64,000 nt of DNA from Patescibacteria group bacterium (GTDB taxonomy: Bacteria; Patescibacteriota; Patescibacteriia; Patescibacteriales; UBA12075): contig JAHILH010000006.1 in the NCBI GenBank assembly GCA_018897195.1, forward strand, positions 2,152-66,151, written 5' to 3'. Positions 7,702 to 61,130 of the stretch are shown here, in pieces. Below the pieces are notes generated by a model. It was not told where the DNA came from. It did not search any database and saw only the letters and a program-made list of their open reading frames with translations. Position numbers and translations under genes: made by a program. Every line of letters begins with the position of its first letter. Position 1 is the first letter of the stretch.

Positions 7702-8484
7702 ATGTTAACCAGTAAAGACAATCAAAAAATAAAAGATATTATTAAGTTGAGAAAATCAGCTAAACGAAAAAAAGACGACTTGATTATCGTCGAAGGTCGC
7801 AAGGAGATTGGCTTGGCCTTGAAATCTGGCTTGAAACCAGAGCAATTATTTTATTCCTTAGAATTTGAAAAAGAAGCGCGCTTTCCTGATTGGAATGTGG
7901 CAAGCTTCACTGAGGTAATTGAAGTTTCTCAAGATATTTTTGCTAAAATTGCTTTTCGGGAGACGCCTGATGGTTATCTGGCGACCTTTAAGCCTCTTAG
8001 ACTGGGTTTGAGTGAGGTGAAGTTGTCAGTAAGCCCCTTTGTGGTTATTTTGGAGTCGATTGAGAAGCCAGGCAATTTGGGGGCTATTTTGCGTACCTGT
8101 GATGCCGCTGGTGTAGATGCTGTTATTGTAGCGGATCAACGCACGGATATATATAATCCCAATGTAATTCGATCAAGCTTGGGTACGGTATTTACGGAAC
8201 AAATCGTTTCAGACACTTTTGAAAATATTATCGAATGGCTAGAGTTGCACAAAATAAAAACCTTTGCAGCAACGCCAGACACCAAGTTGTTGTTCACTGA
8301 GGCTGATTATAATGAACCGACCGCCATCCTAATCGGTACCGAGCATGAAGGCTTGTCTGCTAAGTGGCTAGAAATGGCTAATTATAAAATAAAAATTCCC
8401 ATGAAAGGGAAAATGGACTCACTTAATGCCAGCGTTTCAGCTGGAGTAGTAATTTACGAAGTTGTGCGTCAGCGTGGGTTGTAA
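7702..8484 (+). CDS. TrmH/SpoU family RNA 2'-O-methyltransferase
   Basis: SpoU motifs NLGAILRTCDAAGV, LIGTEHEGLS and IPMKGKMDSLNASVSAGVVIYE. Confidence 0.8.
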   Translation: MLTSKDNQKIKDIIKLRKSAKRKKDDLIIVEGRKEIGLALKSGLKPEQLFYSLEFEKEARFPDWNVASFTEVIEVSQDIFAKIAFRETPDGYLATFKPLRLGLSEVKLSVSPFVVILESIEKPGNLGAILRTCDAAGVDAVIVADQRTDIYNPNVIRSSLGTVFTEQIVSDTFENIIEWLELHKIKTFAATPDTKLLFTEADYNEPTAILIGTEHEGLSAKWLEMANYKIKIPMKGKMDSLNASVSAGVVIYEVVRQRGL

Positions 8485-8543: not shown

Positions 8544-10898
8544 ATGCTAAATTTCAATAAGTTTAAATTAAAAACAAGCATAAAAATTGTGGCCGCTTTT
8601 TTGGTTATTTTACAGGCGGTTTTTTTGTTGCAAAAAGTATTTGCTGGCTCACCTAGTACTTTGGTGGTAAAACCGCTTACGAGCACGATGGGATTTAATT
8701 TAACTTGGAGTTTTAATGATAGTGATCCTGATGCAACTTATTTTTTATTAAAGTCATCATCTGTCACATCTTTAAGTTGTCCGCTTGTTCCGGTTTCTAC
8801 AATGTTTAACAAGCTATATTCTGGAAAAAACACAACGATCTACAATATGAATGTTGGTGATATTGTGCCTGGCATAAAATATTCTTTTAAAGCCTGTCTT
8901 TATGGTAGTAATAATTTTATTAGTGGAATTATTAATACGCCAAACTTATTAGAGGAGACAAATACGGCTAGTGCAATTTTTACTACCATAATCGCTTCGC
9001 CGACAAATGAAACTGTGGCAACGACAAGTCTAGTTGATCCTATTGATTTAAATACAGTTCCGGTGACCGCTGATGATACTGTTGCTACCACTACGGTTAT
9101 TGCCGACAATCCTGTTTTAAGCACAGACCCAATATTGAACGCCGATATCAAAAAAATTAACCTATCAAGTGTTGGTAAAGATTTATATTGGCAAACGAGT
9201 AGCTACTTTGCTTCTGGCTTTTATGTTCTTTGGTCTAAAACGGAAAGTCCGGTTTATCACTCCGGGGCTGTGGGTATGACTTATTTCATGGATCCGTTGG
9301 CTAAATTTTATACCATAAATTCTTATGACGGCGCCGGTGTTTATTATGTTCGAGTTTGTGAAGCTTTGCCTGCAGGCGATTGCGGGCTTTATAGCAATGA
9401 ATTGACTCTTAATTTGTTGGCCGATGTTGTGGTCTTAGAAAAGACGGTTGCTAGTACGACAACAGCGACAACCTCAATAATTATCAAAGAACCAGTCAAT
9501 GAGCCTTTAATTGGTAATACTGCCACTAATACTTTTGAGACGGTGGAGCCAATAGTGACTGACAAAAAAATTATGTCAGAACCGATTAAGACTACCGTTG
9601 ATTTATCAAAACAAATAACTCCTATTATTACTGAAACAAAGGCGGCTTTGAGGGTAAAAACTACCTTGCCTGTAAAAAAGCTAAATAAAATTTCTGAAAA
9701 AACTACTACTGCTTTAGAGAAAAAGGCAGCCGAGAAAGGTATTCCAGTTATTAAGATTAATAGTCCGGAGACAATGGCCGGCGTGTTAAAAGAGGAAGCG
9801 ACTAGTAGTCAGTTGATTCCATCTAATATAGGCGCCAACCTTAATAATCTGCCCAAGATTTGTGTTGCTAATAATATTTTGAATGAAAATGGCTGTAATC
9901 ATTATTTTTTCAGTGAAGCAACTAGAGAGGTAAAATGTCCCGATGGTGGTGATAGCTGCTTGATTGAAGCGCGGGAGAAATACTTGAATGGTATTACTAA
10001 TACACAACTTAAATTGGAGGCGGTTGATAAAGTTGCTGCTGAAAATACAAGTGGAGTGATGAGTGTTGGATTTTTAAAAGAAGCTTTGACTACTTTTTCC
10101 GACGTGGTTTCTTTGCTTGATAATGCGACAGGTGTAAAAATATTAAAATCTGAAGGTGGCGTCAGCTACCAGGACGATAAAATTATTCAAACCGGTTCTT
10201 CAATTTTGGTAATTGACAGCGATAATGATGGCTTGCCAGATGATATTGAGAAGAAGATTGGCACTGATCCAAACAACAAAGATACGGATATTGATGGTTA
10301 TGGTGATTACGAAGAATATACTAATGGTTATAATCCATTAGGTAGTGGCAAGCTAACAGCCGGAAATGAATTGGCGCCTGTAGAAATGGCAATTGTTAAT
10401 AATGAAATTTTTGAACAGCCAAAAAATAATGGTGTTCTTCACGAAGATTTTTTGACTGAATCAATTACGAATCTTGGAACAGCGACTAGTAGTGAGGCGG
10501 TCGGTTATTTATTACAAGGCAAAGCAACGCCTAATACGGTAATTGCTTTGTATATCTATTCTGATTTGCCACTAATGATTACTGTCAAAACTGATGATTA
10601 TGGTAATTGGAGATATGAATTAAAGCAATCTTTATCCGACGGTAATCACGAGGTGTATGTAGCCTTGAATGATGCTACTGGCAGGGTGGTTGCCAAGAGC
10701 AGTCCCTTGAGTTTTCTTGTGAAGGAGGCACAGGCGGCGAGTCTAGCTGACGTAGTTCTGGATAATACCGCGCCTACAATTGAAAGCGAGAATAATAATA
10801 TTTTTGTTTATTATTTATTAATCTTCGGAGTTTCAGTTTTGGCTGGTGTAATTATATTTATCAACCTGGTTAAGAGAAGAAGAAATTCAGATGTTTAA
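8544..10898 (+). CDS. Large secreted, C-terminally membrane-anchored protein with a thrombospondin-type-3-like Ca-binding module
   Basis: Signal peptide (VAAFLVILQAVFLLQKVFAG), Thr-rich linkers and a TSP3-like module (DSDNDGLPDDIEKKIGTDPNNKDTDIDGYGDYEEYTNGYNPLGSGKL). Also an Ig-like segment and a C-terminal TM helix followed by KRRRNSD. Confidence 0.6.
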   Translation: MLNFNKFKLKTSIKIVAAFLVILQAVFLLQKVFAGSPSTLVVKPLTSTMGFNLTWSFNDSDPDATYFLLKSSSVTSLSCPLVPVSTMFNKLYSGKNTTIYNMNVGDIVPGIKYSFKACLYGSNNFISGIINTPNLLEETNTASAIFTTIIASPTNETVATTSLVDPIDLNTVPVTADDTVATTTVIADNPVLSTDPILNADIKKINLSSVGKDLYWQTSSYFASGFYVLWSKTESPVYHSGAVGMTYFMDPLAKFYTINSYDGAGVYYVRVCEALPAGDCGLYSNELTLNLLADVVVLEKTVASTTTATTSIIIKEPVNEPLIGNTATNTFETVEPIVTDKKIMSEPIKTTVDLSKQITPIITETKAALRVKTTLPVKKLNKISEKTTTALEKKAAEKGIPVIKINSPETMAGVLKEEATSSQLIPSNIGANLNNLPKICVANNILNENGCNHYFFSEATREVKCPDGGDSCLIEAREKYLNGITNTQLKLEAVDKVAAENTSGVMSVGFLKEALTTFSDVVSLLDNATGVKILKSEGGVSYQDDKIIQTGSSILVIDSDNDGLPDDIEKKIGTDPNNKDTDIDGYGDYEEYTNGYNPLGSGKLTAGNELAPVEMAIVNNEIFEQPKNNGVLHEDFLTESITNLGTATSSEAVGYLLQGKATPNTVIALYIYSDLPLMITVKTDDYGNWRYELKQSLSDGNHEVYVALNDATGRVVAKSSPLSFLVKEAQAASLADVVLDNTAPTIESENNNIFVYYLLIFGVSVLAGVIIFINLVKRRRNSDV

Positions 10899-42777: not shown

Positions 42778-45700
42778 ATGAAAGCAAAAAACGTAAAAAA
42801 ATTAATTCTTCCAATTATACTGTTAACATTAGCAATGACGGTTTTTTTGGCTGCACCAGCTTTGGCTCAACTTAATCCTTGGGGTCAATCGAGCGCCATT
42901 CAGGATCAAACCGGTTTGTCAGCGACAAGTCCTGTTTTGGTGGTTGCTAATATTATTAAATTTGTTTTAGGTTTTCTAGGTTTTATTACTTTAATTTTGA
43001 TAATATATGCCGGCTTCCTTTGGATGATGTCTAACGGCAATGCTGATAGGGTGGCCAAGGCGAAAAAAACTATAATTGCAGCCGTGGTTGGCTTGACTAT
43101 TGTCTTGTCCTCTTATGGAATTGCTAGCTTTGTTTTAAATTTATTACTTGATGGTAATGGTGGGAATGGTGGATCAGCCCTTTGTGCTAACGGCAATGAG
43201 ACTACTTGTTGCAGTGGTAGCGGAACACGACTTTGCATTGATGGTGTTTGGGGTGCTTGCAGCAATTCTTTTTGTGATGGTTATGGCGGTTCTGGAGGAA
43301 CTTCTTTTCCAGCGGGAGCCGGTTTGGGAGAATCTTGCGGAACGACTCCTGGTAACTGTGAAGCGTCAACAACTTGTGCTATTGGCTTGAATTGTGATAT
43401 TGCTGCTTGTACTTGTCAGGGTCCGCCAGTGATTGACTGGGTAAGTCCGGTGGGTGGATTTTGCTGGAATAAGCTTGGCAGCTCGACTGATTCAGCTTGT
43501 TTAACCGACCAGGATTGTTCGAATGTAACAGCTGGGCCGGGAACTTGTGCAACTAGTACACCTAATGGTGCGGTGAATTCAATGATGACAATTGGTGGAC
43601 GTTACTTTGCGTCAGCGACTTCGACGCCGGCCATTGGTAAAGTTTATTTTAAAACTGCAGCTGGGGCAGATGTGGAGGCGAAATTAGCCAATAATCCTGC
43701 CGGTGGCAATGCGCAATGTACTAATGTCTGGAGCAGTGACAAGGTGGTCGTATTGGTTCCTGGTAACGTGGCCGATACTAGTTTAATTAAAATTAGAAGA
43801 GCAGACGGCGAAGAGGATACCACTAATAATCAAGAAAGGGGCCCGATTATTCCTAATTTTTTAAAAAATAATATTATTAGACCAGGCTTGTGTAGTATCA
43901 GTCCTAATGGCGGAGTGATCGGTAAAGAAATAAAATACTTTGGAGTTAATTTGTCGGGTGCAAGTGCTTTCTTCGGTAGTTATTCAGTCGCAGCTATTCC
44001 GGGTGATAGCTCCGTCTTTGTTGGTGATTTGTCTGGGAAAACTAATGTGCCCAACATGCAAGCTGGCAAAACTACCACTTATATTCAAAAAGGCCTAACA
44101 AATAGTAATTATTATCCTTTCGAAAAGCTAAAAGAGGGAGTGGGTGAGCCACGTATCATTAGCTTTGACCCGATAAAAGGTAACAGTGGACAGTATGTCA
44201 CTATTCATGGTGCTGATTTTGGCTATGCGACTGCGGCACAACTGGGAATTACTAATCATGTTTATTTGGATAATAATCTAACTGATAATGACAAGGGTGT
44301 TGAAGCTTCTTTTGCTTTTCCTGATGTTTGTACTGAGAGTGTCTGGAGTGATAAGCAAATTATTTTTAAAGTAGCTTCTTCTACCAAGCTTATTGATAAT
44401 GCAAAATATTATGTAGTTATTGCCACCAAGGACTGGGTGATTGATAGTGGTAATTTACTTACGATTGGTGGTATTTCTCCAACCTTTACTTTTAGTTCTT
44501 CAACGCCTTTATCACCAAGCCTATGTTTAATTTCTCCCAAGATTGGTATGCCAAACATTACCGACGTGAGTCTGTATGGTGAGTATTTTGGCAATAAGGT
44601 GGCTGGTAAAGTTAAATTTTATAAAAATGTTGATATCTCCGGTTTTAATGATTCTTCTTGGTTGTATAATAGCGCTGATAAGTTTTATCAGGTAGCGACC
44701 AAAACACCAGTGACAGCGATTAGTGGTCCCGTGGTTGTTTCGCAAGGAGTTAATATTAGTAATAGTCTCAATTTTGAAGTCGGTTCTTGTTTGGCGGTTG
44801 GAGGTACCCAGCAAGATAAAAATATCGCTTGCGGTTCTATCTGCTGTCCAGAAAATAGCAGTATGGCTGGTCAGTGTGCTGATACCATGAACACTTGTTA
44901 TGTTGGTGGGGCGCTAACTTCTGTCTATGAATGGGATTTTGATACAAGTAAAAAGGGCGCAATTGGCGAACCTTGTGATGCGGCCACTTCGACGGCTGTT
45001 TGTGAGCCTGACAACACTAAATGTGCTAGTGGCTTAGTCTGTAAGGCCGACAAAGATTGTACTTGCCAACCAGATGTTAGCGCTTGCTCCTCTTATGATT
45101 TATTACAATGTATTGATACTTTGTTTTGTCCAAATTCACCAGGAAAATGTTCTCCATATCAAGGTGGGGAAAATTTATTTGACACAAATGTGACTTGCTC
45201 GACGGTGAATAGCAGTGACTTGATTTATAATGCAAATTTAAATCGTTATGCAAGTTCAACGCAGAATTGTTCCTTGGGGGCGACGACTAAAGATGTTTTA
45301 GGCAAAGATGTTCAGACTTTTTGTGCTCTTTACAACCAGTCTCCGCGTTACCAATTTAAAACCAGTATGAGTTGTCCTACCGGTTGGACTTTGGCCCTTG
45401 GTGGCGTTTGCGTGGACTTGGTTAATAGTTGTAATTTGTGTGCCGGCAATTTGAAATGCGCGGATAATAGTGGTACCGGTGTTTGTGTTGATGATAGGCC
45501 AGTTTGTTCGAGTGGGTCGAAATGTGTTAGCGAAAAATGTGTTAAAGATGATAAGGCTTCTTGTGATTGTTGTTGTGAAATAGGTAAAGAAGGTGACTGT
45601 TGTGCTGGCTTAACTTGCGGTGGTACTTGCGGCAGTGACACTACAAACGATGGTGCTGGTTTTGGTGAGTGTAGTGGCTGTAACATTGACGGCGATCAAA

Positions 45701-48234
45701 GCAAGTCAGATTTGGCTTGTAATTGTAGTGGTACTAATGGAAAATATTGTGACATGACGGCAGCCAGTAATAAAGGCGTTTGCCTAGACTGTGCGTCCTT
45801 GCCAGCAGATTCTTGTTCTGATCATAGTTCGACCTGTTGTGTTGATGGTGTGAATGGCAATAAATGTGCCGGCGGCGCGGGAAATCTTGCTTTAGATATT
45901 TTTAAAGTTCCAGCTAAAGACGCCTATTGCGCTTATTATGATTGTAATAGTAATGGCACTTGTGGCGTGGCAAGCACGACGGGGCAATATTTTAATGACA
46001 ATACTTGTAATCAGGAATGCACCTTGACTTTGGCGGGGGCAAAGTGTTCCAAGGTGGTTTCGAACGCAACTAAATGTTCTTATGATTTTTGTAAGGATTT
46101 ATATTGTTTGGATGAGTCTGGCGATAAATTAGCCGGTTGCGATGCTAATGGTAATAATTGCACGCCTTGCACTGATGGCACATGTGGTAATTGTTGTTGT
46201 GATCCGGCAAAAACCGGAACTGATCCAAATGATGCTACGACTTATGATAAATGTAAAAAAATTAACTCTGTTTTAGATTGTCGAGCCAATGTCGGCCCCT
46301 GTGATGGTGCTGGACGCGGTCTTTGTTGTGGTTGCTCTGATGATCAGAGTTGTGGCGATGAAGGAGTATCCAATGGTTGCAGTACAGACACTTGTTGTCG
46401 AGCGCGTCCAAATGTGGCCTCTTCTAGTCCGGCCGATGATGCAACCGCTGTTTGCCGTAATGCCAAAATAGAAGTTACCTTTGATCAAGTGATGGATATT
46501 AATAGTTTTTCTGATAACACGATTGTGGCGGGTGACTACGGCACTGGACAGTGTCCAGCCGAAACACAATATGTAGCAATGACTGGAATGAGCGACAAGC
46601 ATAATCTTTTCGCGAGAATTTATTATCGGGTTATTGATTTTATCGAACCTATTTTACCAACATCAATTGCTAATGCCTTGATGATGCCAACAACTAATAA
46701 TTATTGCGCGATCCCCGGATCAGTGAGTGGTTATGTAACAGCTGGCGACAAGGCTGTGTTGGAATTTAGTCCTAAAAAATTACTAGATACAAAAAGATTG
46801 TATTATGTTATAATAAAGGGCGATGAAAACTTAAATAGTAAGACGGGTGTAAAAAGCAATTGGGGAGTAGGAATGAATGGTGAATCCATGGACGCGGGAA
46901 TAATGTTCAATGGCATAACTTACAAAAACTCACACGTCTTGTCTTTTGAAACCTTGGGTAGTCAAGGAGCCAACAAAGGTGTTTGCTTGGTGAACAAGGT
47001 TAGTATTAATCCAAGTTCTTATCTTTTTCAAACTAATATTAATAATTTTGGTGACGATGTTTATGGTAGTGCTAATTTTGATAAAGTTAAGGATAGCGAT
47101 AAGGTTTTTATTTCTAAAGCCTTGAGCATTGATGGACAGCTATTGTCAGGAATTTCTGGTGTGTATGACTGGAGTTGGGGTTGGAATTCTACCAATCAAG
47201 GAGTGGCGAGCAATGTATCGCTTGCTGAATTGCCTGATTACGAAAGTTTAGTCAAGGTAAAAGATGGTGTTGTTGAAGGCAAAACGGATATTGGCGCAAA
47301 ATTAACAATTACTGCCTCATCTCTTGATGGGAGCTCACTTGGCGCAAGTTTAAGCGCCACGTCAAAGGTGTATGTCTTTATTTGTGCGAATCCTTGGCCA
47401 CCGGTAAAAGATGATGGAACGTGGTTGCCGTGGATTGACAGTAATACCAATTGCGATATCAATAGTGGCGCTTGTAATAATGCTAATTTTGAATCATATT
47501 ATTGCCGTGATCTTGGCAGCGACAGCACCTTGGATGATTTGCCGGCAATTGGTAATAACGACAGTATTGTTCATGGCACAAGTAGTCAAAAATCAATGGC
47601 CGACTTAGTAAAAGAAGTTTATTTTTTCCGTGGTCGAGAGGCGAGTACGAATAATAGTGCAACTTTTACGGCAGCTGTAAATTCAATGGCTATTGATGGC
47701 GGCGAGGTGAGTGTTAATTGGTCTGATAATGCGTTTGATGTTTTGTCAGTAAAAAATTACAAAGTTTATTGGGGCGTTAAGACCGGTAGTCATACTTTTT
47801 CTAGGGTAGTATCGCCAGACCTTAATAGTGTGAATATTAATGGTTTAAAAAATAATACCACTTATTATTTTAATATGACGGCTATTGCTAGTGATTCTGG
47901 TGCAGAAAGTGAATTTTTGAAAAATGAAGATATAGTTGTTTTGGTAAAAGATGTTTATTCTCCTGCCAAGGTGGAAAACTTTACCGCTACTTATAGCGAT
48001 AGTAATTCAATGTTGTTGAACTGGAATAAGGTTAATGGAAATCCGGCTAAATATATTATATATTATGGCGTTAATAATGGTTACGGTTATTCTAAAGAAG
48101 TTAGCAGTCTTAGCAGTAGTGTAGTCATTGCTGGCTTAACCAACGGCGGTAGTTATAATTTTGGCATTATCGCTGTCGACCTATCTGGAAACGCAAGTGC
48201 GACAACCACAGTTCAGGCAATATTAAATCCTTAA
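42778..48234 (+). CDS. Giant surface protein 2 (1818 aa): same pilin-type N-terminal module, IPT/TIG repeats, extremely Cys-rich core, two FN3 domains
   Basis: The N-terminus is paralogous to the upstream gene (PVLVVANIIKFVLGFLGFITLILIIYAGFLWMMSNGNADRVAKAKKTIIAAVVGLTIVLSSYGIASFVLNLL). About four IPT-like units (e.g. EPRIISFDPIKGNSGQYVTIHGADFG). I hand-counted roughly 70 Cys between residues ~660 and ~1200. The C-terminus carries FN3 units (NYKVYWGVKTG..NGLKNNTTYYFNMTAI; AKYIIYYGVNNG..GLTNGGSYNFGIIAVD). Confidence 0.65.
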   Translation: MKAKNVKKLILPIILLTLAMTVFLAAPALAQLNPWGQSSAIQDQTGLSATSPVLVVANIIKFVLGFLGFITLILIIYAGFLWMMSNGNADRVAKAKKTIIAAVVGLTIVLSSYGIASFVLNLLLDGNGGNGGSALCANGNETTCCSGSGTRLCIDGVWGACSNSFCDGYGGSGGTSFPAGAGLGESCGTTPGNCEASTTCAIGLNCDIAACTCQGPPVIDWVSPVGGFCWNKLGSSTDSACLTDQDCSNVTAGPGTCATSTPNGAVNSMMTIGGRYFASATSTPAIGKVYFKTAAGADVEAKLANNPAGGNAQCTNVWSSDKVVVLVPGNVADTSLIKIRRADGEEDTTNNQERGPIIPNFLKNNIIRPGLCSISPNGGVIGKEIKYFGVNLSGASAFFGSYSVAAIPGDSSVFVGDLSGKTNVPNMQAGKTTTYIQKGLTNSNYYPFEKLKEGVGEPRIISFDPIKGNSGQYVTIHGADFGYATAAQLGITNHVYLDNNLTDNDKGVEASFAFPDVCTESVWSDKQIIFKVASSTKLIDNAKYYVVIATKDWVIDSGNLLTIGGISPTFTFSSSTPLSPSLCLISPKIGMPNITDVSLYGEYFGNKVAGKVKFYKNVDISGFNDSSWLYNSADKFYQVATKTPVTAISGPVVVSQGVNISNSLNFEVGSCLAVGGTQQDKNIACGSICCPENSSMAGQCADTMNTCYVGGALTSVYEWDFDTSKKGAIGEPCDAATSTAVCEPDNTKCASGLVCKADKDCTCQPDVSACSSYDLLQCIDTLFCPNSPGKCSPYQGGENLFDTNVTCSTVNSSDLIYNANLNRYASSTQNCSLGATTKDVLGKDVQTFCALYNQSPRYQFKTSMSCPTGWTLALGGVCVDLVNSCNLCAGNLKCADNSGTGVCVDDRPVCSSGSKCVSEKCVKDDKASCDCCCEIGKEGDCCAGLTCGGTCGSDTTNDGAGFGECSGCNIDGDQSKSDLACNCSGTNGKYCDMTAASNKGVCLDCASLPADSCSDHSSTCCVDGVNGNKCAGGAGNLALDIFKVPAKDAYCAYYDCNSNGTCGVASTTGQYFNDNTCNQECTLTLAGAKCSKVVSNATKCSYDFCKDLYCLDESGDKLAGCDANGNNCTPCTDGTCGNCCCDPAKTGTDPNDATTYDKCKKINSVLDCRANVGPCDGAGRGLCCGCSDDQSCGDEGVSNGCSTDTCCRARPNVASSSPADDATAVCRNAKIEVTFDQVMDINSFSDNTIVAGDYGTGQCPAETQYVAMTGMSDKHNLFARIYYRVIDFIEPILPTSIANALMMPTTNNYCAIPGSVSGYVTAGDKAVLEFSPKKLLDTKRLYYVIIKGDENLNSKTGVKSNWGVGMNGESMDAGIMFNGITYKNSHVLSFETLGSQGANKGVCLVNKVSINPSSYLFQTNINNFGDDVYGSANFDKVKDSDKVFISKALSIDGQLLSGISGVYDWSWGWNSTNQGVASNVSLAELPDYESLVKVKDGVVEGKTDIGAKLTITASSLDGSSLGASLSATSKVYVFICANPWPPVKDDGTWLPWIDSNTNCDINSGACNNANFESYYCRDLGSDSTLDDLPAIGNNDSIVHGTSSQKSMADLVKEVYFFRGREASTNNSATFTAAVNSMAIDGGEVSVNWSDNAFDVLSVKNYKVYWGVKTGSHTFSRVVSPDLNSVNINGLKNNTTYYFNMTAIASDSGAESEFLKNEDIVVLVKDVYSPAKVENFTATYSDSNSMLLNWNKVNGNPAKYIIYYGVNNGYGYSKEVSSLSSSVVIAGLTNGGSYNFGIIAVDLSGNASATTTVQAILNP

Positions 48235-53776: not shown

Positions 53777-53797
53777 TTTTGAATAAAATATTAAAAA

Positions 53798-53820
53798 AGA
53801 GCTATTATTAGCTCTTTTTT
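53798..53820 (+). terminator. Rho-independent terminator after ftsZ
   Basis: AGAGCTA-ttat-TAGCTCT followed by a T-run. Confidence 0.7.
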
Positions 53821-53870
53821 GTTTTGGTTTATATTTTAGTTCCTTGGTTTGATTTTACTTGCCAAATAGC

Positions 53871-53897
53871 TTGACTTTTTGCTAATATTGTGATAAT
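53871..53897 (+). promoter_or_regulatory. Promoter for the atypical islet: TTGACT-15-(TGt)GATAAT
   Basis: TTGACT 53871-53876 and TGTGATAAT 53889-53897, downstream of the ftsZ terminator. The spacer is short. Confidence 0.4.
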
Positions 53898-53989
53898 AAT
53901 AGCATATTAAATTACATTGGTATTTATCGGTGTTTTAGGACATTGACAATGGGCGTCTCGCCCTAAATAAAGAAAAGTCCAAGCGGACT

Positions 53990-53996
53990 AAGGAGG
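53990..53996 (+). promoter_or_regulatory. Canonical Shine-Dalgarno AAGGAGG
   Basis: 5-nt spacer to the ATG at 54002. Confidence 0.7.
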
Positions 53997-54001
53997 CAGA
54001 G

Positions 54002-55150
54002 ATGCGCAAGGTACAAATACTATGGGTGGCAATTTTTTGTCTTTCAGTTAGCGGCCTGGCTTGGGCAGAAATCAATGGCGCGAGTCTGAGAATTACCGGC
54101 TACAAGGCCGGTGAAACAACGATTAGCGAGGAGACAAAAAAATCGTTGCACAAGACTGTTGCAGACCTGGATAAGAGCTTGTTGAGCGTTAAAGATCAGT
54201 CAAAGCTGAGTCTTACCGTAGCGGGTGCAGCTGATGACAATGACAAAAACGATTCTTCTTTGGGTCGTGTGCGGGCAAACGGAGTAATATTTGTATTGAA
54301 AAGTCTTTATCCGCAAGCCAAGATATCAGTAGTGCCGTCCAGCGGTACTGATATTAAACCAGGCGAAGTTCTCGTTTGGTCAAAGCTGGAAACAGCTCAG
54401 GCTGGAATGATTACGTCTGCACCAGCAAAAATAGCGGTGGTTAAAAAAGAATCCGTTAAAGTGGAACAGCCCAAGATGGAGTCAGGGCCAGTCATTAAAC
54501 AGCCGACGCGTTCCAATTCTCAGGAAACGTCATGGTTTAATGTCCAATTGGTAGCATCTGCGCTTACCTTTGTCGGTCTTCTTGGCGTGATTCTTTTTGT
54601 CTATAAAAAAATCCCAAAACGTCCCGATGTTGTTAGTAAAGGAACAGAAGAGGAAGTGTCTGATTCGGGGAAGATGGGAGAAGAGCCGAATGTGTTAGAT
54701 GCCATAATCAAACCAGCGACAATGGTGCCTGCGGTAGAAGTTGTTGTTGAGAAAATTGAAGAAAAATCGGCGCCGGTCTTGGTGGCGAATAGTCTTGCCG
54801 AAATTATCGAAGTCGATGTCCCTGGTTTTATTGTCAAAATTGAAAAATTACTACACGATAATATTGTAAGACTTGAATCGCCTTTTACTACGCTTACATT
54901 GGGTGTTGATAAAATGATTCCAAAGACTTTACTTTTTGATGATACACCCAAGGGTATGGAGGAGTTGAAGACATCTTTAAAAAAGTGTCTTAATTCTGTT
55001 CAGTATAGTGGACAGAAGGATGATTTGTTGAGAGCTGAAGTTGTGAGAAAGAGCTTGCCCGCAGCATCAGTAAAAACATCGAAGTCATTGCATGTTGTTG
55101 GGGCAAAAGCCGCTGAGCCAGCAGTCGCTGCTCAAAAGGTTGGTGGGTGA
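54002..55150 (+). CDS. Type I membrane protein with a degenerate OmpA-C-like outer domain (compositionally atypical islet, gene 1)
   Basis: Signal peptide (VAIFCLSVSGLAWA/E). LTVAGAADDNDKNDSSLGRVRANGVIFVL loosely follows the OmpA-C pattern (GhtD..G....N..LS..RA..V). TM helix LVASALTFVGLLGVILFVY, then a ~175-aa C-terminal tail. Canonical AAGGAGG lies 5 nt upstream of the ATG. Confidence 0.5.
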   Translation: MRKVQILWVAIFCLSVSGLAWAEINGASLRITGYKAGETTISEETKKSLHKTVADLDKSLLSVKDQSKLSLTVAGAADDNDKNDSSLGRVRANGVIFVLKSLYPQAKISVVPSSGTDIKPGEVLVWSKLETAQAGMITSAPAKIAVVKKESVKVEQPKMESGPVIKQPTRSNSQETSWFNVQLVASALTFVGLLGVILFVYKKIPKRPDVVSKGTEEEVSDSGKMGEEPNVLDAIIKPATMVPAVEVVVEKIEEKSAPVLVANSLAEIIEVDVPGFIVKIEKLLHDNIVRLESPFTTLTLGVDKMIPKTLLFDDTPKGMEELKTSLKKCLNSVQYSGQKDDLLRAEVVRKSLPAASVKTSKSLHVVGAKAAEPAVAAQKVGG

Positions 55151-55158
55151 TTAATCTG

Positions 55159-55190
55159 GGCGGAAGATAAAACTTCCGCCTGTCATTTTT
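55159..55190 (+). terminator. Intercistronic GC-rich hairpin (partial terminator or mRNA-processing element) between the two islet genes
   Basis: GGCGGAAG-ataaaa-CTTCCGCC, then tgtcattttt, directly abutting the second AAGGAGG. Confidence 0.4.
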
Positions 55191-55197
55191 AAGGAGG
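55191..55197 (+). promoter_or_regulatory. Canonical Shine-Dalgarno AAGGAGG
   Basis: 6-nt spacer to the ATG at 55204. Confidence 0.7.
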
Positions 55198-55203
55198 TGC
55201 ACG

Positions 55204-56004
55204 ATGGCGACCAAACAAGAAAGAAGGTTACATTATACGATTATCCTGCTGGCGATATTGCTGGCGGCAGCCCTTGGTGGCTGTGGTTATTATTACAACA
55301 AGATTGCTGGCTTTGAAAGTCAGAAAACAGAAGACATTGTAAAACTGAACAGGGAACATGCAACTGAATTGGCGGTTGCCAAGGGCAATCTTAAGGCAGC
55401 CGAAGAGAAATTAACTGTGGCTGAGGGAAAGATTGCCAAGTTTAGTGAGAAAGAGACGGCGTATAAGGAGAAGATTGACGAACTTAGGGGGGATGTAGGG
55501 CCTGGTAAACAGAAACAGGCATTAGCGCCAGCCAAGAAATCAACCCCAGTTGCATCGCCTGAAAAAAAGAAACACACAATCGTAGCAACTAATTCGCAAA
55601 AGACTATTGTTGCCGCGAAAACGATAAAGACTGTGCATAAAACCAGGCCGGCCAAGAAAATGAAGCCCCGTCACATTAAAAAGGCTCATAATCACAAAAA
55701 TGTTGGCCATATTAGCAAGAAGAGTAGTCATGGCAAAAAGCATGCGCACATCAACAAGAAGACTAGCCATGCCAAGAAGCAGCACAAGAGCACAATGAAG
55801 AAACATGAAAAAATTCAGACCGTTGTCAAAGACTTGTCTTTGTCAGCTCTTTGTGAAGAGCAGAGCGTGGATCGTCCTTTTTTCCTACAGTTGACGAAGG
55901 ATGCGGTTACGTATGGCTATACTGCAAAAGTGTGGGAAGTACAGCATGGTTCGACCAAAAATATCCAGATCTTGCTGACGAGTTCGGAAATGCCAAATTC
56001 GTAA
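55204..56004 (+). CDS. Membrane/lipoprotein-anchored coiled-coil protein with a Lys/His-rich basic region (islet gene 2)
   Basis: N-terminal helix ending in the lipobox-like LGGC, a coiled coil, then KKAHNHKNVGHISKKSSHGKKHAHINKKTSHAKKQHKSTMKKHEK. Canonical AAGGAGG lies 6 nt upstream of the ATG. Confidence 0.5.
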   Translation: MATKQERRLHYTIILLAILLAAALGGCGYYYNKIAGFESQKTEDIVKLNREHATELAVAKGNLKAAEEKLTVAEGKIAKFSEKETAYKEKIDELRGDVGPGKQKQALAPAKKSTPVASPEKKKHTIVATNSQKTIVAAKTIKTVHKTRPAKKMKPRHIKKAHNHKNVGHISKKSSHGKKHAHINKKTSHAKKQHKSTMKKHEKIQTVVKDLSLSALCEEQSVDRPFFLQLTKDAVTYGYTAKVWEVQHGSTKNIQILLTSSEMPNS

Positions 56005-56094
56005 TCAGACAAGTCTGTGTTTAAGATTTAATTTCTGAAGTTGGCTTGTATAATCTCGTAATCAAAGGGAAGCTTTGAATAAGATATAGCAAAG

Positions 56095-56116
56095 ACTAAG
56101 AGCAAAAGTTCTTAGT
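56095..56116 (+). ncRNA. Hairpin copy 1 of a three-member family with invariant GAGCAAAAGTTC core
   Basis: ACTAAGA-gcaaaagt-TCTTAGT (7-bp stem); core at 56100-56111. Confidence 0.35.
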
Positions 56117-56194
56117 ATTATATGTCAAAATTCAAGCAACAACTATCTAAATCCCTTAAAAATAGTTTCGAATAAACCGCAAAATTAGAAGTGG

Positions 56195-56226
56195 GTGACG
56201 CTAGGAGCAAAAGTTCCAGGTGCCTC
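56195..56226 (+). ncRNA. Hairpin copy 2 (same invariant core, different stem sequence)
   Basis: GGTGACGCTAGGA-gcaaaagt-TCCAGGTGCCTC, an imperfect stem with G-U pairs; core at 56205-56216. Confidence 0.35.
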
Positions 56227-56293
56227 ATTATTCAGAGATGTACGCGGTGATCAAAAAGTTTAAGACAGTTCTGGAAATGGGCTGTTATACAAT

Positions 56294-56343
56294 GAGTGGT
56301 TACTTAAGAGCAAAAGTTCTTGGTGCCACTCATTTTTTATTTT
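56294..56343 (+). ncRNA. Hairpin copy 3 with an extra outer stem and T-run (terminator-like)
   Basis: GAGTGG-ttac-TTAAGA-gcaaaagt-TCTTGG-tg-CCACTC, then attttttattttt; core at 56308-56319. Confidence 0.4.
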
Positions 56344-56361
56344 TAAAATTTGTATGATATA

Positions 56362-56712
56362 ATGAAGTCTATGAACAAACAACGATTATTATTAATATTT
56401 ATATTGATTTTTTTATCCAATATTACCAGTGGATGTGTTATTGATAACAATAGCAACAAAGAGCAGGTGCGTAGTAAAAATGTTGATGGCAAAACTGTGG
56501 GCTACGATAAAACGCTAAGCAAGAATATTGCGGTGAAAAAAGTAACCATACTAGATGGTTGCATTGGTTGTGGTGTTTGCGCAAAGATTGACCGGGAACA
56601 TTTTGTAATAGCTGCTCATCGGGCAAAAGTAATATCTCAAAATAATTTAGAGGCGCCATTGTTGACGGCAGCGATTAAGAATTGCCCAACCGCCGTAATT
56701 GCGTTGAATTAA
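56362..56712 (+). CDS. Small single-cluster ferredoxin-like protein with lipoprotein-type signal sequence
   Basis: LLLIFILIFLSNITSGC (lipobox-like ITSGC), then CIGCGVCAKIDREHF ... AIKNCPTAVI (CxxCxxC...CP). I prefer the ATG at 56362 or 56371 over the TTG at 56350. Confidence 0.6.
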   Translation: MKSMNKQRLLLIFILIFLSNITSGCVIDNNSNKEQVRSKNVDGKTVGYDKTLSKNIAVKKVTILDGCIGCGVCAKIDREHFVIAAHRAKVISQNNLEAPLLTAAIKNCPTAVIALN

Positions 56713-56715
56713 TTT

Positions 56716-57210
56716 ATGTTCCTAGAAACCCACACCTTCTTCGCCAACTTGAGTTGGATATTGTTGATTATTATTCTTGTCTCACGACCCTTGGCAGAAA
56801 TTACCAAAAATAAGATCTTATTTCGAGTTTTGCGCTATCGAAAACAATTGGGTGTAATCTGTGGATTAGCAGCTATTGTCCATGTACTATTCTTTTTACT
56901 TGGTAGCGGCTTGGCAGGAATTTATTTTTTAGATGCCGAGTTTTGGTCATTGCAAAATTTCTATGGCTGGGGGAGTTTAGCCGTGGTGGCGATGCTGTTT
57001 CCGCTTCTTACTTCTAATAATTTTTCCTTGCATTTTTTTGGCAAATACTGGAAAAAAATTCAGCGGGGAACCTATTTGGTTTTTATCGCAACCGCTATTC
57101 ATATCGCCATGGTCAAAGATGAGTGGTTTGAGGTGATGGGGCCGGTGCTTATTTGGTTATTTCTATGGACCTGGGCAGAGCTTAGGAGACGAAAAAGGTT
57201 TAAAGTTTAA
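56716..57210 (+). CDS. MsrQ/YedZ-like ferric-reductase-type heme-b membrane protein
   Basis: About five TM helices. The pattern VSRPLAEI..RYRKQLGVICGLAAIVHVLFFL ... LLTSNNFSLHFFGKYWKKIQRGTYLVFIATAIHIAM parallels E. coli MsrQ (TPLAR..R.RR.LG......H ; TS....R.LG..W..L....Y......H). Starts 3 nt after the ferredoxin gene. Confidence 0.55.
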   Translation: MFLETHTFFANLSWILLIIILVSRPLAEITKNKILFRVLRYRKQLGVICGLAAIVHVLFFLLGSGLAGIYFLDAEFWSLQNFYGWGSLAVVAMLFPLLTSNNFSLHFFGKYWKKIQRGTYLVFIATAIHIAMVKDEWFEVMGPVLIWLFLWTWAELRRRKRFKV

Positions 57211-57221
57211 TATTTAGCAAT

Positions 57222-57884
57222 ATGAGCATTTTTAAACATAAGGCTATTAAAAAAGTTTTAGCACTGACATTTTTTTTGTTTTTGATGGTGAGCATCTTTG
57301 GGGCCTTGTATTATTTTCGTGAGACTGTTTATTCTTCAGTGGATCAATTGGCTTTTTTTATAAAAGAGCATATTTTTGTTGGAATTCTCGCATTTGTTCT
57401 CATTTCTATTTTGGCCGTTGTTTTTTCTCCGCTCTCTAGTCTGCCGTTGGTGCCATCTGCCATTATTGCCTGGGGTGATTTTTGGACCTTTGTTTTTTTA
57501 TTATCAGGCTGGTTTATTGGATCCTTGGTTGGTTATTTTTTGGGGTATTTTACACGAGAGGGGGTTTTGGAAAAATTTTTTTCACTTAAAAAGATTGAGT
57601 ATTATAAAAGTCAAATTTCGCAGGATGCACAATTTTTATTAGTTTTGATTTTTCGTTTAGCCATTCCTTCTGAGATTACCGCTTATACATTGGGAATTGT
57701 GCGATATGATTTGAAAAAGTTTATGATCATTGCTGTTCTTTCAGAATTACCCTTTGCCTTGTTGGTTGTTTACTCTGGCAGGGCGGTCTATGATGGCAAT
57801 ATTTTTCTTTTTATTGGTATTATTACCTTTGCCTTGGTTTTTATTACATTTTTCTCCCTTTTGCTTAAGAAGAGATTTAAATAA
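57222..57884 (+). CDS. TVP38/TMEM64 (DedA-related, VTT-domain) membrane protein
   Basis: Polytopic, with FSPLSSLPLVPSAIIAWGDFW and FRLAIPSEITAYTLGI strings typical of the family. Confidence 0.55.
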   Translation: MSIFKHKAIKKVLALTFFLFLMVSIFGALYYFRETVYSSVDQLAFFIKEHIFVGILAFVLISILAVVFSPLSSLPLVPSAIIAWGDFWTFVFLLSGWFIGSLVGYFLGYFTREGVLEKFFSLKKIEYYKSQISQDAQFLLVLIFRLAIPSEITAYTLGIVRYDLKKFMIIAVLSELPFALLVVYSGRAVYDGNIFLFIGIITFALVFITFFSLLLKKRFK

Positions 57885-57907
57885 AAATGGTCAATGAGCT
57901 TGGTAAC

Positions 57908-57916
57908 TTATCCACA
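57908..57916 (+). promoter_or_regulatory. Perfect DnaA-box-like 9-mer TTATCCACA
   Basis: One nucleotide upstream of the -35 of the promoter at 57918-57946. Confidence 0.4.
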
Positions 57917-57917
57917 A

Positions 57918-57946
57918 TTGACCAGATTTTAAATCTGGTGTATAAT
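57918..57946 (+). promoter_or_regulatory. Near-consensus promoter TTGACC-17-TATAAT with a perfect 8+1+8 palindrome in the spacer
   Basis: TTGACC 57918-57923 and TATAAT 57941-57946. The palindrome CCAGATTT-t-AAATCTGG occupies 57922-57938. TTATCCACA at 57908-57916 abuts the -35. Confidence 0.65.
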
Positions 57947-58263
57947 ATAGTTATATCTTTGTAGGGCTGTGCAAAAGAGTAACAGTGCTACGAAGAAAAT
58001 CGCTAAAAATAAGCGAAACAAAACAAAAAGCAAAATAAAAATCAAAAAATAAAAACAAAATTGACAATTAGATATTCTTGAATTGGTATAAGGAATTTTT
58101 CGGTAAGAGGGGATTGAAGTGTGTGATTTGAGTCAAAACTAAATAGGGATAAATTTTTTTTGAAAATGCTTTTTGTTGAAAGGCATTTTTTTTATTGCTC
58201 TGCCTTACGAATACACAAACCTCTTACAAAAGTGATTTTGTAGAAGATTCGTTGATTCGTGGA

Positions 58264-58324
58264 AAATAAATCCCCATGCAATCGGCAGAATGCTTATAAA
58301 AAGATTTAATTAATAAATCCCCAT
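58264..58324 (+). repeat. Exact 14-nt direct repeat AATAAATCCCCATG (2 copies, 47 nt apart) in the 5' region of paralogue 1
   Basis: Copies at 58264-58277 and 58311-58324. Each ATG opens only a 5-7 codon frame. The string resembles the real start context of paralogue 2 (TTATTCCCATGCAA). Confidence 0.6.
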
Positions 58325-58439
58325 GATTTCCATTGTCTAGGCATAGACGGTGGGCAGGTCGAAGTCAGGGTTTTAAAAGCTACATCCTTTATAGGATGTA
58401 TATAAGCGCTTATATCTTAACTAAAATAAAACAAAAATT

Positions 58440-59480
58440 ATGAAACAAAAAAAATTCATAGCCTCGTTGGCGATTGCTTCTTTGGTGTTGGCCGTAGTTG
58501 GTTATTACCCAGGAGTAAACAGCGCCCAAGCCGTCAATTCGTTAACGGCCGCTAAGGCTCTATTGAGTGAGTCAGCCCCTGGTACGGCTGCAACAACGAC
58601 TATTTCTTTTACCTCAGGAACATCAACTGATGCGACTGGTTATTTCGAAGTGGTTATGCCAGCTGGTTTTGGCGATGTCTTGGTTGGTAACGTGACTTGT
58701 TCAACTGGTGCTGCTAGCGCGTTTAACACAGAAACAATTCGTTGTACTGGTGTTCAAGCCGCTGGTGTTAAAACTATTACCTTGGCCAATACAACTAATC
58801 CGACAGCAACTACAAGTCAAGTTATTAATATTGCTCACTACGATGTGGCTGGAAATTTAGCAGAACGGGTACAGGTTGTTGTACAAATCATTGATAATGT
58901 TTGGATGACAGCGCGTGTTGACGCTACCTTAACATTCACAGTGGCTGGTATGAATAAAGATGCCACTGTTAACGGTGCTGTTTGTACTGCTACCACGTCA
59001 GCAACTTCGACACCGTTTGGAACCTTAATTCCAACTATTCCATCAACTGTTTGTCAGGAATTGAAGGTGACAACTAATTCATCTGCTGGTTTTGTAGTCA
59101 CAGTCGAACAGGATACAGAAATGACATCTGATGGTAACGACAATATTAATAGCTTTAAAGATGCTGCTGATGGTGCTGGTTTGGGCGTAGCTGAGGCATG
59201 GGTTTCTCCAAGTACAGTTCTTGATAATGATTGGACTTATGGTCACATGGGTTTAACTTCAGATGATACAACTGTTGTTGGCATGGATTATAATGGTACA
59301 AAGTATGCCGGTCTTATTGGTTCAAGCGTTATGAATGTGATGACACATGATGGTCCAGCTGATGGATCAACTCAAGATAAGGGTAGAGTGGCAGTAGCCT
59401 ATACTGCGGAAATTAACGCCTTGCAACAAGCGGGTGATTATGAAAACACACTGACTTATATTGCGACACCGACTTACTAA
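58440..59480 (+). CDS. Secreted beta-rich surface protein, paralogue 1 (WxL-like C-terminal signature)
   Basis: Signal peptide ending SAQA/V and N-terminal LLSESAPGTAATTTISFTSG. The C-terminal half reads DATLTFTV..TPFGTL..ELKVTTNSSAGFVVTVEQD..YGHMGLTSDD..AGDYENTLTYIATPTY. Own promoter and terminator. Confidence 0.6.
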   Translation: MKQKKFIASLAIASLVLAVVGYYPGVNSAQAVNSLTAAKALLSESAPGTAATTTISFTSGTSTDATGYFEVVMPAGFGDVLVGNVTCSTGAASAFNTETIRCTGVQAAGVKTITLANTTNPTATTSQVINIAHYDVAGNLAERVQVVVQIIDNVWMTARVDATLTFTVAGMNKDATVNGAVCTATTSATSTPFGTLIPTIPSTVCQELKVTTNSSAGFVVTVEQDTEMTSDGNDNINSFKDAADGAGLGVAEAWVSPSTVLDNDWTYGHMGLTSDDTTVVGMDYNGTKYAGLIGSSVMNVMTHDGPADGSTQDKGRVAVAYTAEINALQQAGDYENTLTYIATPTY

Positions 59481-59893: not shown

Positions 59894-60083
59894 TCCGCTA
59901 TAGCCAAAGCTATAGCGCGACGAGGAAAAACAAAATAGTTTAAAATAAACTATAAACACAAACAAAAATAAGCTTATTTTTTAATTGATTGCCTAAATAA
60001 CAATCAATTTATCCCTTATAAATTTAAAATAAATTTAATTAATTAATCTGCCTCGGCGGATTGATTGCTTGAATTTTATTCCC

Positions 60084-61130
60084 ATGCAAAAAACAAAAAC
60101 AAGAAGATTTCTTGTTGCCTTAGTAATATTTTCTATGGTAACAACTTATTTGACAATGCCTACGGCAAAAGCGGCTTCATTTGATTCTGCAAAAGACACA
60201 ATCAGTGATTCAGCACCGAGTATTGTTACAACACATACTATCACAGTCAATCTAGGCACCGCTTTGGTAGCTGGTGATTATGTTAGTATTGATTTCGGCT
60301 CCTTTACTGGTGCTGTGGAAGGCAATACTAGTTGTGCTGCTTTTGGTGATTCAACTGCAACCACTACCGTTGACGGAGTTGGTTGTGAGGTTAACACTGC
60401 AGTTAGCTCAACAACAGATCAGACAATTACTGTTACTGGTGTAACCAGTCCAGTGGCTGGTGGTTACTCTGTTTACGCTCGAACTTATAATGCTAGTGGC
60501 GTAGAAATTGAAAATGCGCAAATGATTGTGTATTTAGTAGATGCTGTAACTGTTACCGCTCACGTTAACGCAACTTTGACATTCGGAGTTGCTGCAATTA
60601 ATGCTGGCGTTGAGATTAATGGCGCAACAACAACTGCTACTTCAACAGCAACTGCAGTTCCTTTCGGAACTTTGAGTTCTGTGGCACCTTCAGTAGTGGG
60701 CCAAGAGTTATCAGTAACAACTAATGCTAGTAATGGTTTTAGTGTGACTGTTCAACAAGACGGTGAAATGGTTTCAGCTGCCGGAGCTAACATTAACAGC
60801 TTTAAAATGGCTGCTAATAACGCTGGTTTAGCGACACCTGAAGTTTGGTCTGATCCAGTGGCAACATTGGGCAGTGATAATACTTATGGTCACATGGGTC
60901 TTACCACTGATGATTCTGATGGTGCTATCGGAACAGCCTTTGGTGGTGCTAAGCTTGCAGGTTTAGCTGCAACTGCTCCTATGGAGATTATGTCTCACAC
61001 TGGTGCAGCTGATGGTTCTACACCTGATAAGGGTAAAGTTAGAGTGGCTTACGAAGTTGGTATTACTGACTTACAAGAAGCTGGTGATTATCAATCAACT
61101 TTGACTTACGTTTGTACACCTACTTACTAA
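60084..61130 (+). CDS. Secreted beta-rich surface protein, paralogue 2
   Basis: About half of positions are identical to paralogue 1 by eye (NATLTFGV..VPFGTL..ELSVTTNASNGFSVTVQQD..YGHMGLTTDD..AGDYQSTLTYVCTPTY). I prefer the ATG at 60084 (MQKTKTRRFLVALVIF) over the TTG at 60069. Confidence 0.6.
   Translation: MQKTKTRRFLVALVIFSMVTTYLTMPTAKAASFDSAKDTISDSAPSIVTTHTITVNLGTALVAGDYVSIDFGSFTGAVEGNTSCAAFGDSTATTTVDGVGCEVNTAVSSTTDQTITVTGVTSPVAGGYSVYARTYNASGVEIENAQMIVYLVDAVTVTAHVNATLTFGVAAINAGVEINGATTTATSTATAVPFGTLSSVAPSVVGQELSVTTNASNGFSVTVQQDGEMVSAAGANINSFKMAANNAGLATPEVWSDPVATLGSDNTYGHMGLTTDDSDGAIGTAFGGAKLAGLAATAPMEIMSHTGAADGSTPDKGKVRVAYEVGITDLQEAGDYQSTLTYVCTPTY

Follow-up and report, generated by a model that had tools for sequence, protein, structure and literature searches.

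Three hairpins with matching tips mark a candidate structured noncoding RNA at the edge of a two-gene islet in a Patescibacteria genome

Why should a short gap between two bacterial genes carry three copies of one motif, each held at the top of a different hairpin? This question is raised by a stretch of 64,000 nucleotides (nt) from a Patescibacteria group bacterium (contig JAHILH010000006.1, positions 2,152 to 66,151), which we call the window and whose numbering is used throughout. The 12-mer GAGCAAAAGTTC occurs three times on its + strand, at 56100-56111, 56205-56216 and 56308-56319, exactly where a first-pass annotation of the window had placed it and with the same spacing of 105 and 103 nt. 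We calculate that a 250-nt stretch holding a 12-mer in three exact copies is expected by chance ~1e-5 times per 64 kb. The copies reside in a candidate noncoding RNA (ncRNA) of ~285 nt (56061-56344, + strand) that is composed of three extended hairpins and one small hairpin with a GAAA loop. We judge it very likely that this is a genuine structured ncRNA, made from the + strand, maintained by selection, restricted to one lineage and distinct from every described family. What the RNA might do is a separate matter, and the possible answers differ widely in probability.

The gap extends from 56005 to 56349. It is preceded by an open reading frame (ORF) for a 266-amino-acid (aa) protein (55204-56004), and the ferredoxin-like ORF that follows it begins at 56362 or 56371. 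As first annotated, it is non-coding. It holds only a 17-codon and a 45-codon ORF, and both are broken in the single informative relative, a related member of the Parcubacteria represented by a contig from Logan accession SRR22387826 (hereafter L060), whose FtsZ protein is 98.5% identical. There, neither the start codon nor the frame of the shorter ORF is retained, and the longer one has a new stop codon. Insertions and deletions between the two versions of the gap are 1-2 nt in length.

Folding of the gap depends on the strand. The candidate RNA has a minimum free energy (MFE) of -80.7 kcal/mol, and a 291-nt stretch compared with shuffled sequences gives z = -5.5 on the + strand versus -1.05 on the - strand. 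This asymmetry exists because the hairpins contain many G.U pairs, which become C.A mismatches on the opposite strand, and it points to a + strand RNA and not to a DNA palindrome. The same observations bear on explanations at the level of DNA, in which the hairpins would be operators, recombination sites or the scar of a mobile element in a hypervariable locus. Spacings of 105 and 103 bp do amount to ~10 helical turns, the pattern GAGC-N4-GTTC resembles the palindrome GAAC-N4-GTTC, and the locus is a hotspot where relatives carry prophage-like or Fic and CreD genes. However, the pairing rests on many G.U pairs that can form only in + strand RNA, and complementarity is retained in stems that vary from copy to copy, unlike in operators for a single protein. 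Neither an integrase nor a transposase is found nearby, and there are no phage, plasmid or viral matches. A DNA-level element is accordingly the most improbable of the functions discussed here, and the recombination site that the first-pass annotation had entertained is not supported, given the same mismatches and the same - strand score.

The 12-mer itself had been described as an invariant loop. It is instead a 4-bp helix (G-C, A-U, G.U, C-G) whose cap is an AAAA tetraloop, and longer, interrupted stems carry it. A helix rather than a loop also fits the third copy in L060, GAGCAAAAGCTC, in which the apical G.U pair has become G-C. The supporting stems differ in sequence from one hairpin to the next, and those listed in the first-pass annotation are all present. 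Hairpin domain 1 (H1; 56074-56136, + strand, apex 56100-56111) pairs TTGAA with TTCAA, GATATA with TATGTC and ACTAAGAGC with GTTCTTAGT, and folds with -18.6 kcal/mol (z = -5.6). Hairpin domain 2 (H2; 56176-56248, + strand, apex 56205-56216) contains a hairpin at 56187-56231 (-15.8 kcal/mol, z = -2.6) with a possible closing helix, ACCGC/GCGGT, around it; the stems GGAGC/GTTCC, GCT./.GGTG and AGTGGG/CCTCAT include several G.U pairs. RNAalifold predicts the small hairpin at 56266-56284 (+ strand), CAGT(T)CTG-GAAA-TGGGCTG, which has a GNRA-type tetraloop and folds weakly on its own (z = -2.5 in the window and -1.4 in L060). The last domain (H3; 56291-56344, + strand, apex 56308-56319) reads AATGAGTGG...CCACTCATT. 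It pairs TTAAGAGC with GTTCTTGG and GAGTGG with CCACTC, and its hairpin (56291-56334) folds with -21.4 kcal/mol (z = -5.7).

H3 doubles as an intrinsic terminator, as had been proposed from its GAGTGG/CCACTC outer stem and T-run. A stable GC-containing stem-loop is followed by a U-tract, encoded by T6-A-T5 at 56333-56344 in the window and by T7 in L060. No U-tract follows H1 or H2. Because these two hairpins lack a U-tract and because the linkers are conserved, the hairpins are best regarded as domains of one RNA and not as an independent array. The view that the gap holds a structured element acting at the RNA level is thus upheld by the strand-asymmetric fold and by the pairing that has been kept, but its division into separate units is not, since the three hairpins belong to a single ~285-nt RNA. 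It had also been stated that the segments between the copies are unrelated to each other. This is true in general: the core common to the copies is only 12-23 nt long (70-87% identity), and the intervening segments of ~80-90 nt are mutually dissimilar. However, H2 and H3 are paralogous over ~45 nt, with H1 more diverged, and the segments are conserved between species.

Does selection maintain this structure? The L060 homologue is found at 8835-9135 (z = -7.1), directly after orthologues of the two genes that precede the gap in the window and just before the end of the contig. In the window, these two genes form an islet (54002-56004, + strand) encoding proteins of 382 and 266 aa, and their L060 orthologues share 58% and 52% aa identity, respectively. 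The array therefore lies at the 3' edge of the islet, as first reported, and is inherited together with both genes. With gaps counted, the RNA regions of the window and L060 share 83% identity, versus 61-64% for the islet genes at the nucleotide level and 59-61% for the third codon positions of ftsA and ftsZ, where neutral divergence is saturated (a contrast that flatters the RNA, as discussed below). A segment of ~74 nt around H2 is almost invariant, the linkers are strongly conserved, and the spacing of the copies is 102 and 103 nt in L060. The region is under purifying selection.

Base pairing has been preserved as well. RNAalifold applied to the two sequences predicts 82 base pairs, of which 4 have changed on both sides, 11 on one side and none to a mismatch, although the method's selection of compatible pairs biases this figure. 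An independent test was made by folding each sequence alone to its MFE structure and projecting the resulting pairs onto the other genome. All ten changed pairs within local hairpins are still paired, three of them by changes on both sides. Five are in H1, where every one is retained and two are double changes. In the small GAAA hairpin, three G.U pairs become Watson-Crick pairs in L060 (3/3 paired). H3 keeps two changed pairs, one by a double compensatory change (U.G to A-U) and the other being the apical G.U to G-C replacement. Since H2 is invariant, it is conserved but uninformative for covariation. What the projection test supports is the four local hairpins only.

A second comparison treats the six hairpin tops (three copies from each of the two genomes) as paralogues. 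When they are aligned, 93% of the cells are paired, versus 24-47% when the 3' partners are slid, and two positions change on both sides. Pairing has thus been kept through compensatory changes both among the copies, as the first-pass annotation had it, and between two species. The apex is the same in all six copies, apart from the one G.U to G-C change, while the stem pairs that adjoin it vary. An invariant apex on varying stem pairs fits a tip that is recognized by its sequence. In contigs that stem from the window's own population (L046-L053), the gap is 100% identical and adds no information to these comparisons.

Comparisons with known RNA classes leave the element without a family. Rfam 15 yields no match at the gathering level anywhere in the window. 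When the gap and its L060 homologue are searched at E <= 10, only noise of 9-18 bits is returned, compared to gathering thresholds of 34-200 bits. ARAGORN reports neither a transfer-messenger RNA (tmRNA) nor a tRNA in the window. Integron attC sites, 6S RNA, signal recognition particle RNA, RNase P RNA, tmRNA and lambda boxB-like nut sites are rejected from the anatomy of the hairpins.

Several other systems share some features with the locus. TIGR-Tas systems are common among candidate phyla radiation (CPR) bacteria and also occur in phages; their ~36-nt units contain two ~9-nt spacers, and a protein with a Nop domain is encoded next to them (Faure et al. 2025, PMC12045711). The locus resembles them in having tandem hairpins, variable palindromic stems, short conserved motifs, a CPR host and a terminator at its end. 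However, a period of 103-105 nt, a 4-nt tetraloop and the absence of spacer-like variable loops exclude this assignment, and no Nop domain is found in the Pfam annotation within ~5 kb or in the AlphaFold2 (AF2) model of the 266-aa protein.

CRISPR arrays consist of at least three near-identical repeats of 23-47 nt, separated by spacers of similar length, and usually lie beside cas genes. ToxI-like antitoxins of type III toxin-antitoxin systems are identical tandem repeats of ~34-36 nt upstream of an endoribonuclease toxin gene. In both, as in the gap, a non-coding transcript contains direct repeats, and a terminator comes after them. CRISPR is rejected on the shared core of 12-23 nt, the period of ~104 nt and the lack of cas genes, and ToxI on repeat units that are not identical, a downstream gene that encodes a Fer4_13 ferredoxin and the absence of any relevant PADLOC match. 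Domain V of group II introns, one part of an intron with domains D1-D6, is a 34-nt hairpin that has an AGC triad and a G.U wobble at the base and also includes a 2-nt bulge and a loop of the GNRA type. Its base resembles the GAGC/GUUC helix with its G.U wobble. Here, this helix is at the apex and is closed by AAAA, and there is no match to Intron_gpII or to a group II model in Rfam, so domain V is rejected too.

How might the RNA be produced? Its start is predicted to lie near 56061, and a possible extended -10 promoter (TG-T-TATAAT, TGTATAAT) can be read at 56047-56054 on the + strand. A scan for consensus promoters does not flag this box, which has no -35 element. Between the stop codon of the 266-aa ORF and H1 there is no convincing terminator, and the scan flags only H1 itself, with a poor tail. 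It is therefore at least likely that transcripts of the islet operon carry the RNA at their 3' end, and an internal promoter may contribute as well. Such an origin would recall small RNAs (sRNAs) from 3' untranslated regions (UTRs), which arise from an internal promoter in the case of DapZ and MicL or by processing in the case of CpxQ. As with these sRNAs, the RNA directly follows the last ORF of an operon, uses the operon's terminator and, in one of the two genomes, may have an internal promoter. It differs in being much longer and more structured, and neither a seed region nor a target has been identified in it. To our knowledge, sRNA biology has not been established in Patescibacteria.

If the RNA is the end of an operon transcript, its hairpins might simply terminate the mRNA and protect it from 3'-to-5' exonucleases, with no function in trans. 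The lack of a convincing terminator upstream of H1, the strong terminator at H3, the constant association of the RNA with the two islet genes and an internal promoter that is not conserved are all consistent with such a passive module. But a stabilizer needs no identical 12-nt apex in six copies, and it needs neither ~74 near-invariant nt nor conserved single-stranded linkers where neutral sites are saturated. A length of ~285 nt is also considerable for a bacterial terminator module. We consider this explanation unlikely.

The explanation that we favor for function gives the tips a direct role. A lineage-restricted ncRNA of ~285 nt would be transcribed from the islet operon as a 3'-UTR-type RNA, from the internal extended -10 promoter, or from both, and its transcript would end at the intrinsic terminator in H3. 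Its three paralogous hairpins would present identical GAGC/GUUC tips, each with a G.U wobble and an AAAA cap, on stems that are free to drift if pairing is kept. A trans-acting factor, most likely an RNA-binding protein, would bind the tips, and the RNA would thereby serve as a scaffold or decoy with several binding sites, on the model of CsrB/RsmZ or CrcZ. The conserved linkers around H2 might contribute further contacts or base pairing. This interpretation is suggested by an apex that stays invariant while the adjoining pairs drift and by the conserved spacing of the copies. That the tips are repeated recognition sites and that the RNA is a multivalent decoy or scaffold is quite possible, though still short of probable.

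CsrB/RsmZ-type decoys appear to offer the closest functional analogy. CsrB and CsrC, RsmX, RsmY and RsmZ, and CrcZ likewise display one motif on several hairpin tips with varying stems and end in an intrinsic terminator. The motif here is different, however: the tips read GAGC-AAAA-GUUC and not GGA or a CA-rich loop, and there are three copies ~104 nt apart. The exposed GGA (ANGGA) loops of CsrB and RsmZ have no counterpart in the gap, where the sole AGGA (56202-56205) is paired inside the H2 stem. No CsrA, Rsm or Hfq partner was identified in the 64 kb of this metagenome-assembled genome (MAG) that could be read.

Several points weigh against this interpretation or narrow its basis. The comparisons involve only two independent sequences, for which covariation carries no statistical weight at the level of R-scape. 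Predicted long-range helices were mostly broken in the projection test. Other, shorter intergenic regions of the two genomes are also 80-86% identical, and the contrast with coding sequence thus overstates how unusual the conservation of the RNA is. Transcription and its start site are predictions from the sequence. The position of the promoter is not conserved, as the aligned site in L060 reads TTTACTAAT and the sole consensus promoter match there is ~100 nt upstream, inside a gene. No candidate binding protein was identified, and both neighboring proteins look like exported envelope proteins. We know of no protein-binding signature that AAAA tips would represent. Finally, relatives with FtsZ identities of 92-96% lack the element, and so narrow a distribution argues against a core cellular role.

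The conserved linkers could alternatively mean that the RNA acts by base pairing, either whole or as a precursor that is cut into ~100-nt sibling sRNAs, with the linkers serving as seeds and the hairpins as stability or processing modules. The linkers are conserved at least as well as the stems, and a period of ~104 nt resembles that of tandem clusters. Clusters of tandem sibling sRNAs are exemplified by LhrC1-4, and sRNAs derived from 3' UTRs are common in bacteria. However, H1 and H2 have no U-tracts, units 2 and 3 are not preceded by promoters, and L060 has lost the TATACAAT-like box that lies upstream of H3 in the window. When 44 translation-start regions of the window are scanned crudely for duplexes, nothing rises above shuffled background; its best value, -45 kcal/mol against a background minimum of -41, involves implausibly large loops and is uninformative. 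Base pairing also leaves the invariant apex unexplained. Like the passive module, this possibility seems unlikely to us.

Does the RNA instead regulate the genes that follow it? The local gene order is ybeY, dgkA, ftsA, ftsZ, the 382-aa gene, the 266-aa gene, the gap, Fer4_13, Ferric_reduct and a gene for a VTT-domain protein. A promoter, a structured leader of ~280 nt, a terminator and then a gene start 27-36 nt farther on would suit a leader or attenuator that controls the operon for ferredoxin, ferric-reductase and VTT-domain proteins in cis. But in four other lineages, what lies upstream of the homologous Fer4_13 and Ferric_reduct gene pair is short and unrelated and lacks the motif, and on this ground the leader or riboswitch idea is rejected. 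The element tracks the upstream islet instead, no conserved alternative anti-terminator fold exists, and a TATAAT at 56358-56363, before the ATG at 56371, suggests that the operon has a promoter of its own. Regulation of this kind is very improbable. The same box ends 7 nt before that ATG, which is the NCBI start of the 113-aa Fer4_13 protein and has no Shine-Dalgarno sequence; the mRNA of the ferredoxin operon may therefore be leaderless, as this layout suggests.

The islet with which the RNA is inherited encodes two orphan proteins. The 382-aa protein has a signal peptide and a transmembrane segment, and only 5 matches to it exist in 1.84 billion representatives. The 266-aa protein is lipoprotein-like, with an LGGC lipobox, a coiled coil, a K/H-rich region predicted to be disordered and a small C-terminal alpha/beta domain, and it has 2 matches in 5.8 billion clusters. 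Neither islet protein matches PHROG, PADLOC, NCBIfam or, at the gathering level, Pfam, and a Foldseek search of the AF2 model of the 266-aa protein against PDB gives no fold match. Across the neighboring proteins, searches with Pfam, PHROGs, PADLOC, NCBIfam and AF2/Foldseek revealed no function, RNA-binding domain or Nop domain. Residues ~120-205 of the 266-aa protein, its K/H-rich part (HIKKA..HKNVGHISKK..HGKKHAH), are among the best kept between the window and L060, where overall identity is 52%. The composition of this region suggests metal or polyanion binding.

How widely is the RNA distributed? In seven relatives with 80-96% FtsZ identity, synteny is lost at the ftsZ stop codon, and motif and RNA are both absent. 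The locus downstream of ftsZ (53777-57900) is hypervariable in this clade, and homology ends either with the stop codon of ftsZ or with the terminator of this gene. Prophage-like genes (AAA_24, HNH, N6_N4 methyltransferase, Terminase_3) are present there in contigs L039-L045 and L062; L063 has Fic and CreD, L061 has one reverse-strand gene of 118 aa, and L060 has an extra Amidase_2 gene. Synteny resumes near 57900, which places the islet, the RNA and the ferredoxin operon all inside the hypervariable locus. A more ambitious proposal would make the RNA the first member of a Patescibacteria-specific class of riboregulators, whose tips titrate or scaffold an unrecognized RNA-binding protein and which forms a small mobile module with two orphan envelope proteins in this prophage-targeted post-ftsZ locus. 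We regard this proposal as quite improbable.

Searches farther afield are largely negative. Within the window, there is no fourth exact copy of GAGCAAAAGTTC, and a relaxed pattern, GAGCNNNNGYTC, finds none of the further copies that would be expected of dispersed elements such as repetitive extragenic palindromes (REP), bacterial interspersed mosaic elements (BIME) or miniature inverted-repeat transposable elements (MITE). Looser matches with up to two mismatches number 6, versus 8.3 expected, and are thus at chance level. A covariance model (R1) matches only its two source sequences. Scanning for two copies of GAGCAAAAGTTC separated by 78-108 nt gives 3 loci in GTDB and 35 in JGI metagenomes, all of them unrelated: ~16 are tandem duplications of longer units with flanks at least 85% identical, ~19 are arrays of 16-nt GGGAGCGAAAGTTCCA mini-hairpins, and 2-3 are chance or coding matches (L003, L025). 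Because the window's own record and L060 are both outside the collections scanned, these scans could not recover true relatives, and their outcome means that the architecture is not widespread rather than that it is unique. Five scans of viral contigs (with the double motif in its strict and a relaxed form, with two conserved segments of the RNA and with the 382-aa protein) and blastn searches of GenBank phages and PLSDB plasmids give no match. A search of the literature for the 12-mer turned up only unrelated PCR primers.

The first-pass annotation had named absence of the motif elsewhere as an observation that would speak against its interpretation, and the outcome comes near to this: one close relative has the array, but no other related architecture was found. 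The suggestion of a small-RNA family fares similarly. A homologue exists in L060, but the family has two members so far.

Some repeats encountered in these searches are of interest in their own right. The 16-nt GGGAGCGAAAGTTCCA is a GAGC-GAAA-GUUC mini-hairpin that has the helix of the window motif but a GNRA loop, and it constitutes a recurrent repeat family unrelated to the window RNA. Its arrays are found in L004-L008, L012-L014, L016-L018, L021-L024, L027, L031-L033, L035 and L037. In L007, arrays at 7101-7272 and 7871-8114 lie in opposite orientation ~600 nt apart in AT-rich, eukaryote-looking DNA and resemble subterminal repeats of transposons. In L001, in L010, L019 and L036, and in L009, L030 and L038, the 12-mer happens to fall within near-identical tandem repeats whose periods are 96-106 nt. 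For example, an intergenic region of a Lutisporaceae MAG (L001, 7229-7660, - strand) has four 106-nt units, and Ga0315282 contigs have 105-nt units that carry a GCGAGGGGCTTTAGCCCC hairpin. A different repeat, CCCTCGCC..GGCGGGAGAGGG(T)TGGGGTGAGG, occurs at 9148-9177 in L060 and at 4245-4290 in L057, both from SRR22387826. It ends L060 right after the RNA, so the assembly is probably broken by an element present in multiple copies.

The RNA locus sits within a neighborhood of cell-surface genes. A giant cysteine-rich surface protein of 1818 aa, with a weak T4SS_pilin match, is encoded at 42778-48234, and the genes at 58440-59480 and 60069-61130 specify a pair of paralogous secreted proteins (~350 aa each) that have no Pfam domain. 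A second non-coding gap of 555 nt (57885-58439) lies upstream of a 346-aa surface protein and is conserved in L061 (2700-3380). It has a promoter rated good (TTGACC-17-TATAAT, near 57918-57946) and a terminator-like hairpin at 58166-58195, and its sequence is conserved up to the start codon. An A-rich stretch within it corresponds to a 25-codon K-rich ORF in L061 (annotated as 28 aa), whose start codon is absent in the window. Rfam finds nothing in this gap, which could be a long 5' UTR or another RNA.

What does the finding mean for these bacteria? Its reach is limited by its setting in two closely related genomes, a hypervariable accessory locus and orphan neighboring genes, and a niche accessory RNA is more likely than a widespread new class. 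The element is perhaps best described as an orphan sRNA candidate, either independent or derived from the 3' UTR of an operon, with comparative support that is good but thin and with a narrow distribution. As far as we know, regulatory RNAs are almost uncharted in Patescibacteria; these bacteria are uncultured, their genomes are reduced, and the classical sRNA chaperones are mostly missing from them. The candidate gives the study of riboregulation in CPR bacteria a concrete start, in the form of a covariance model that can seed searches and a hairpin that can serve as bait for a binding protein.

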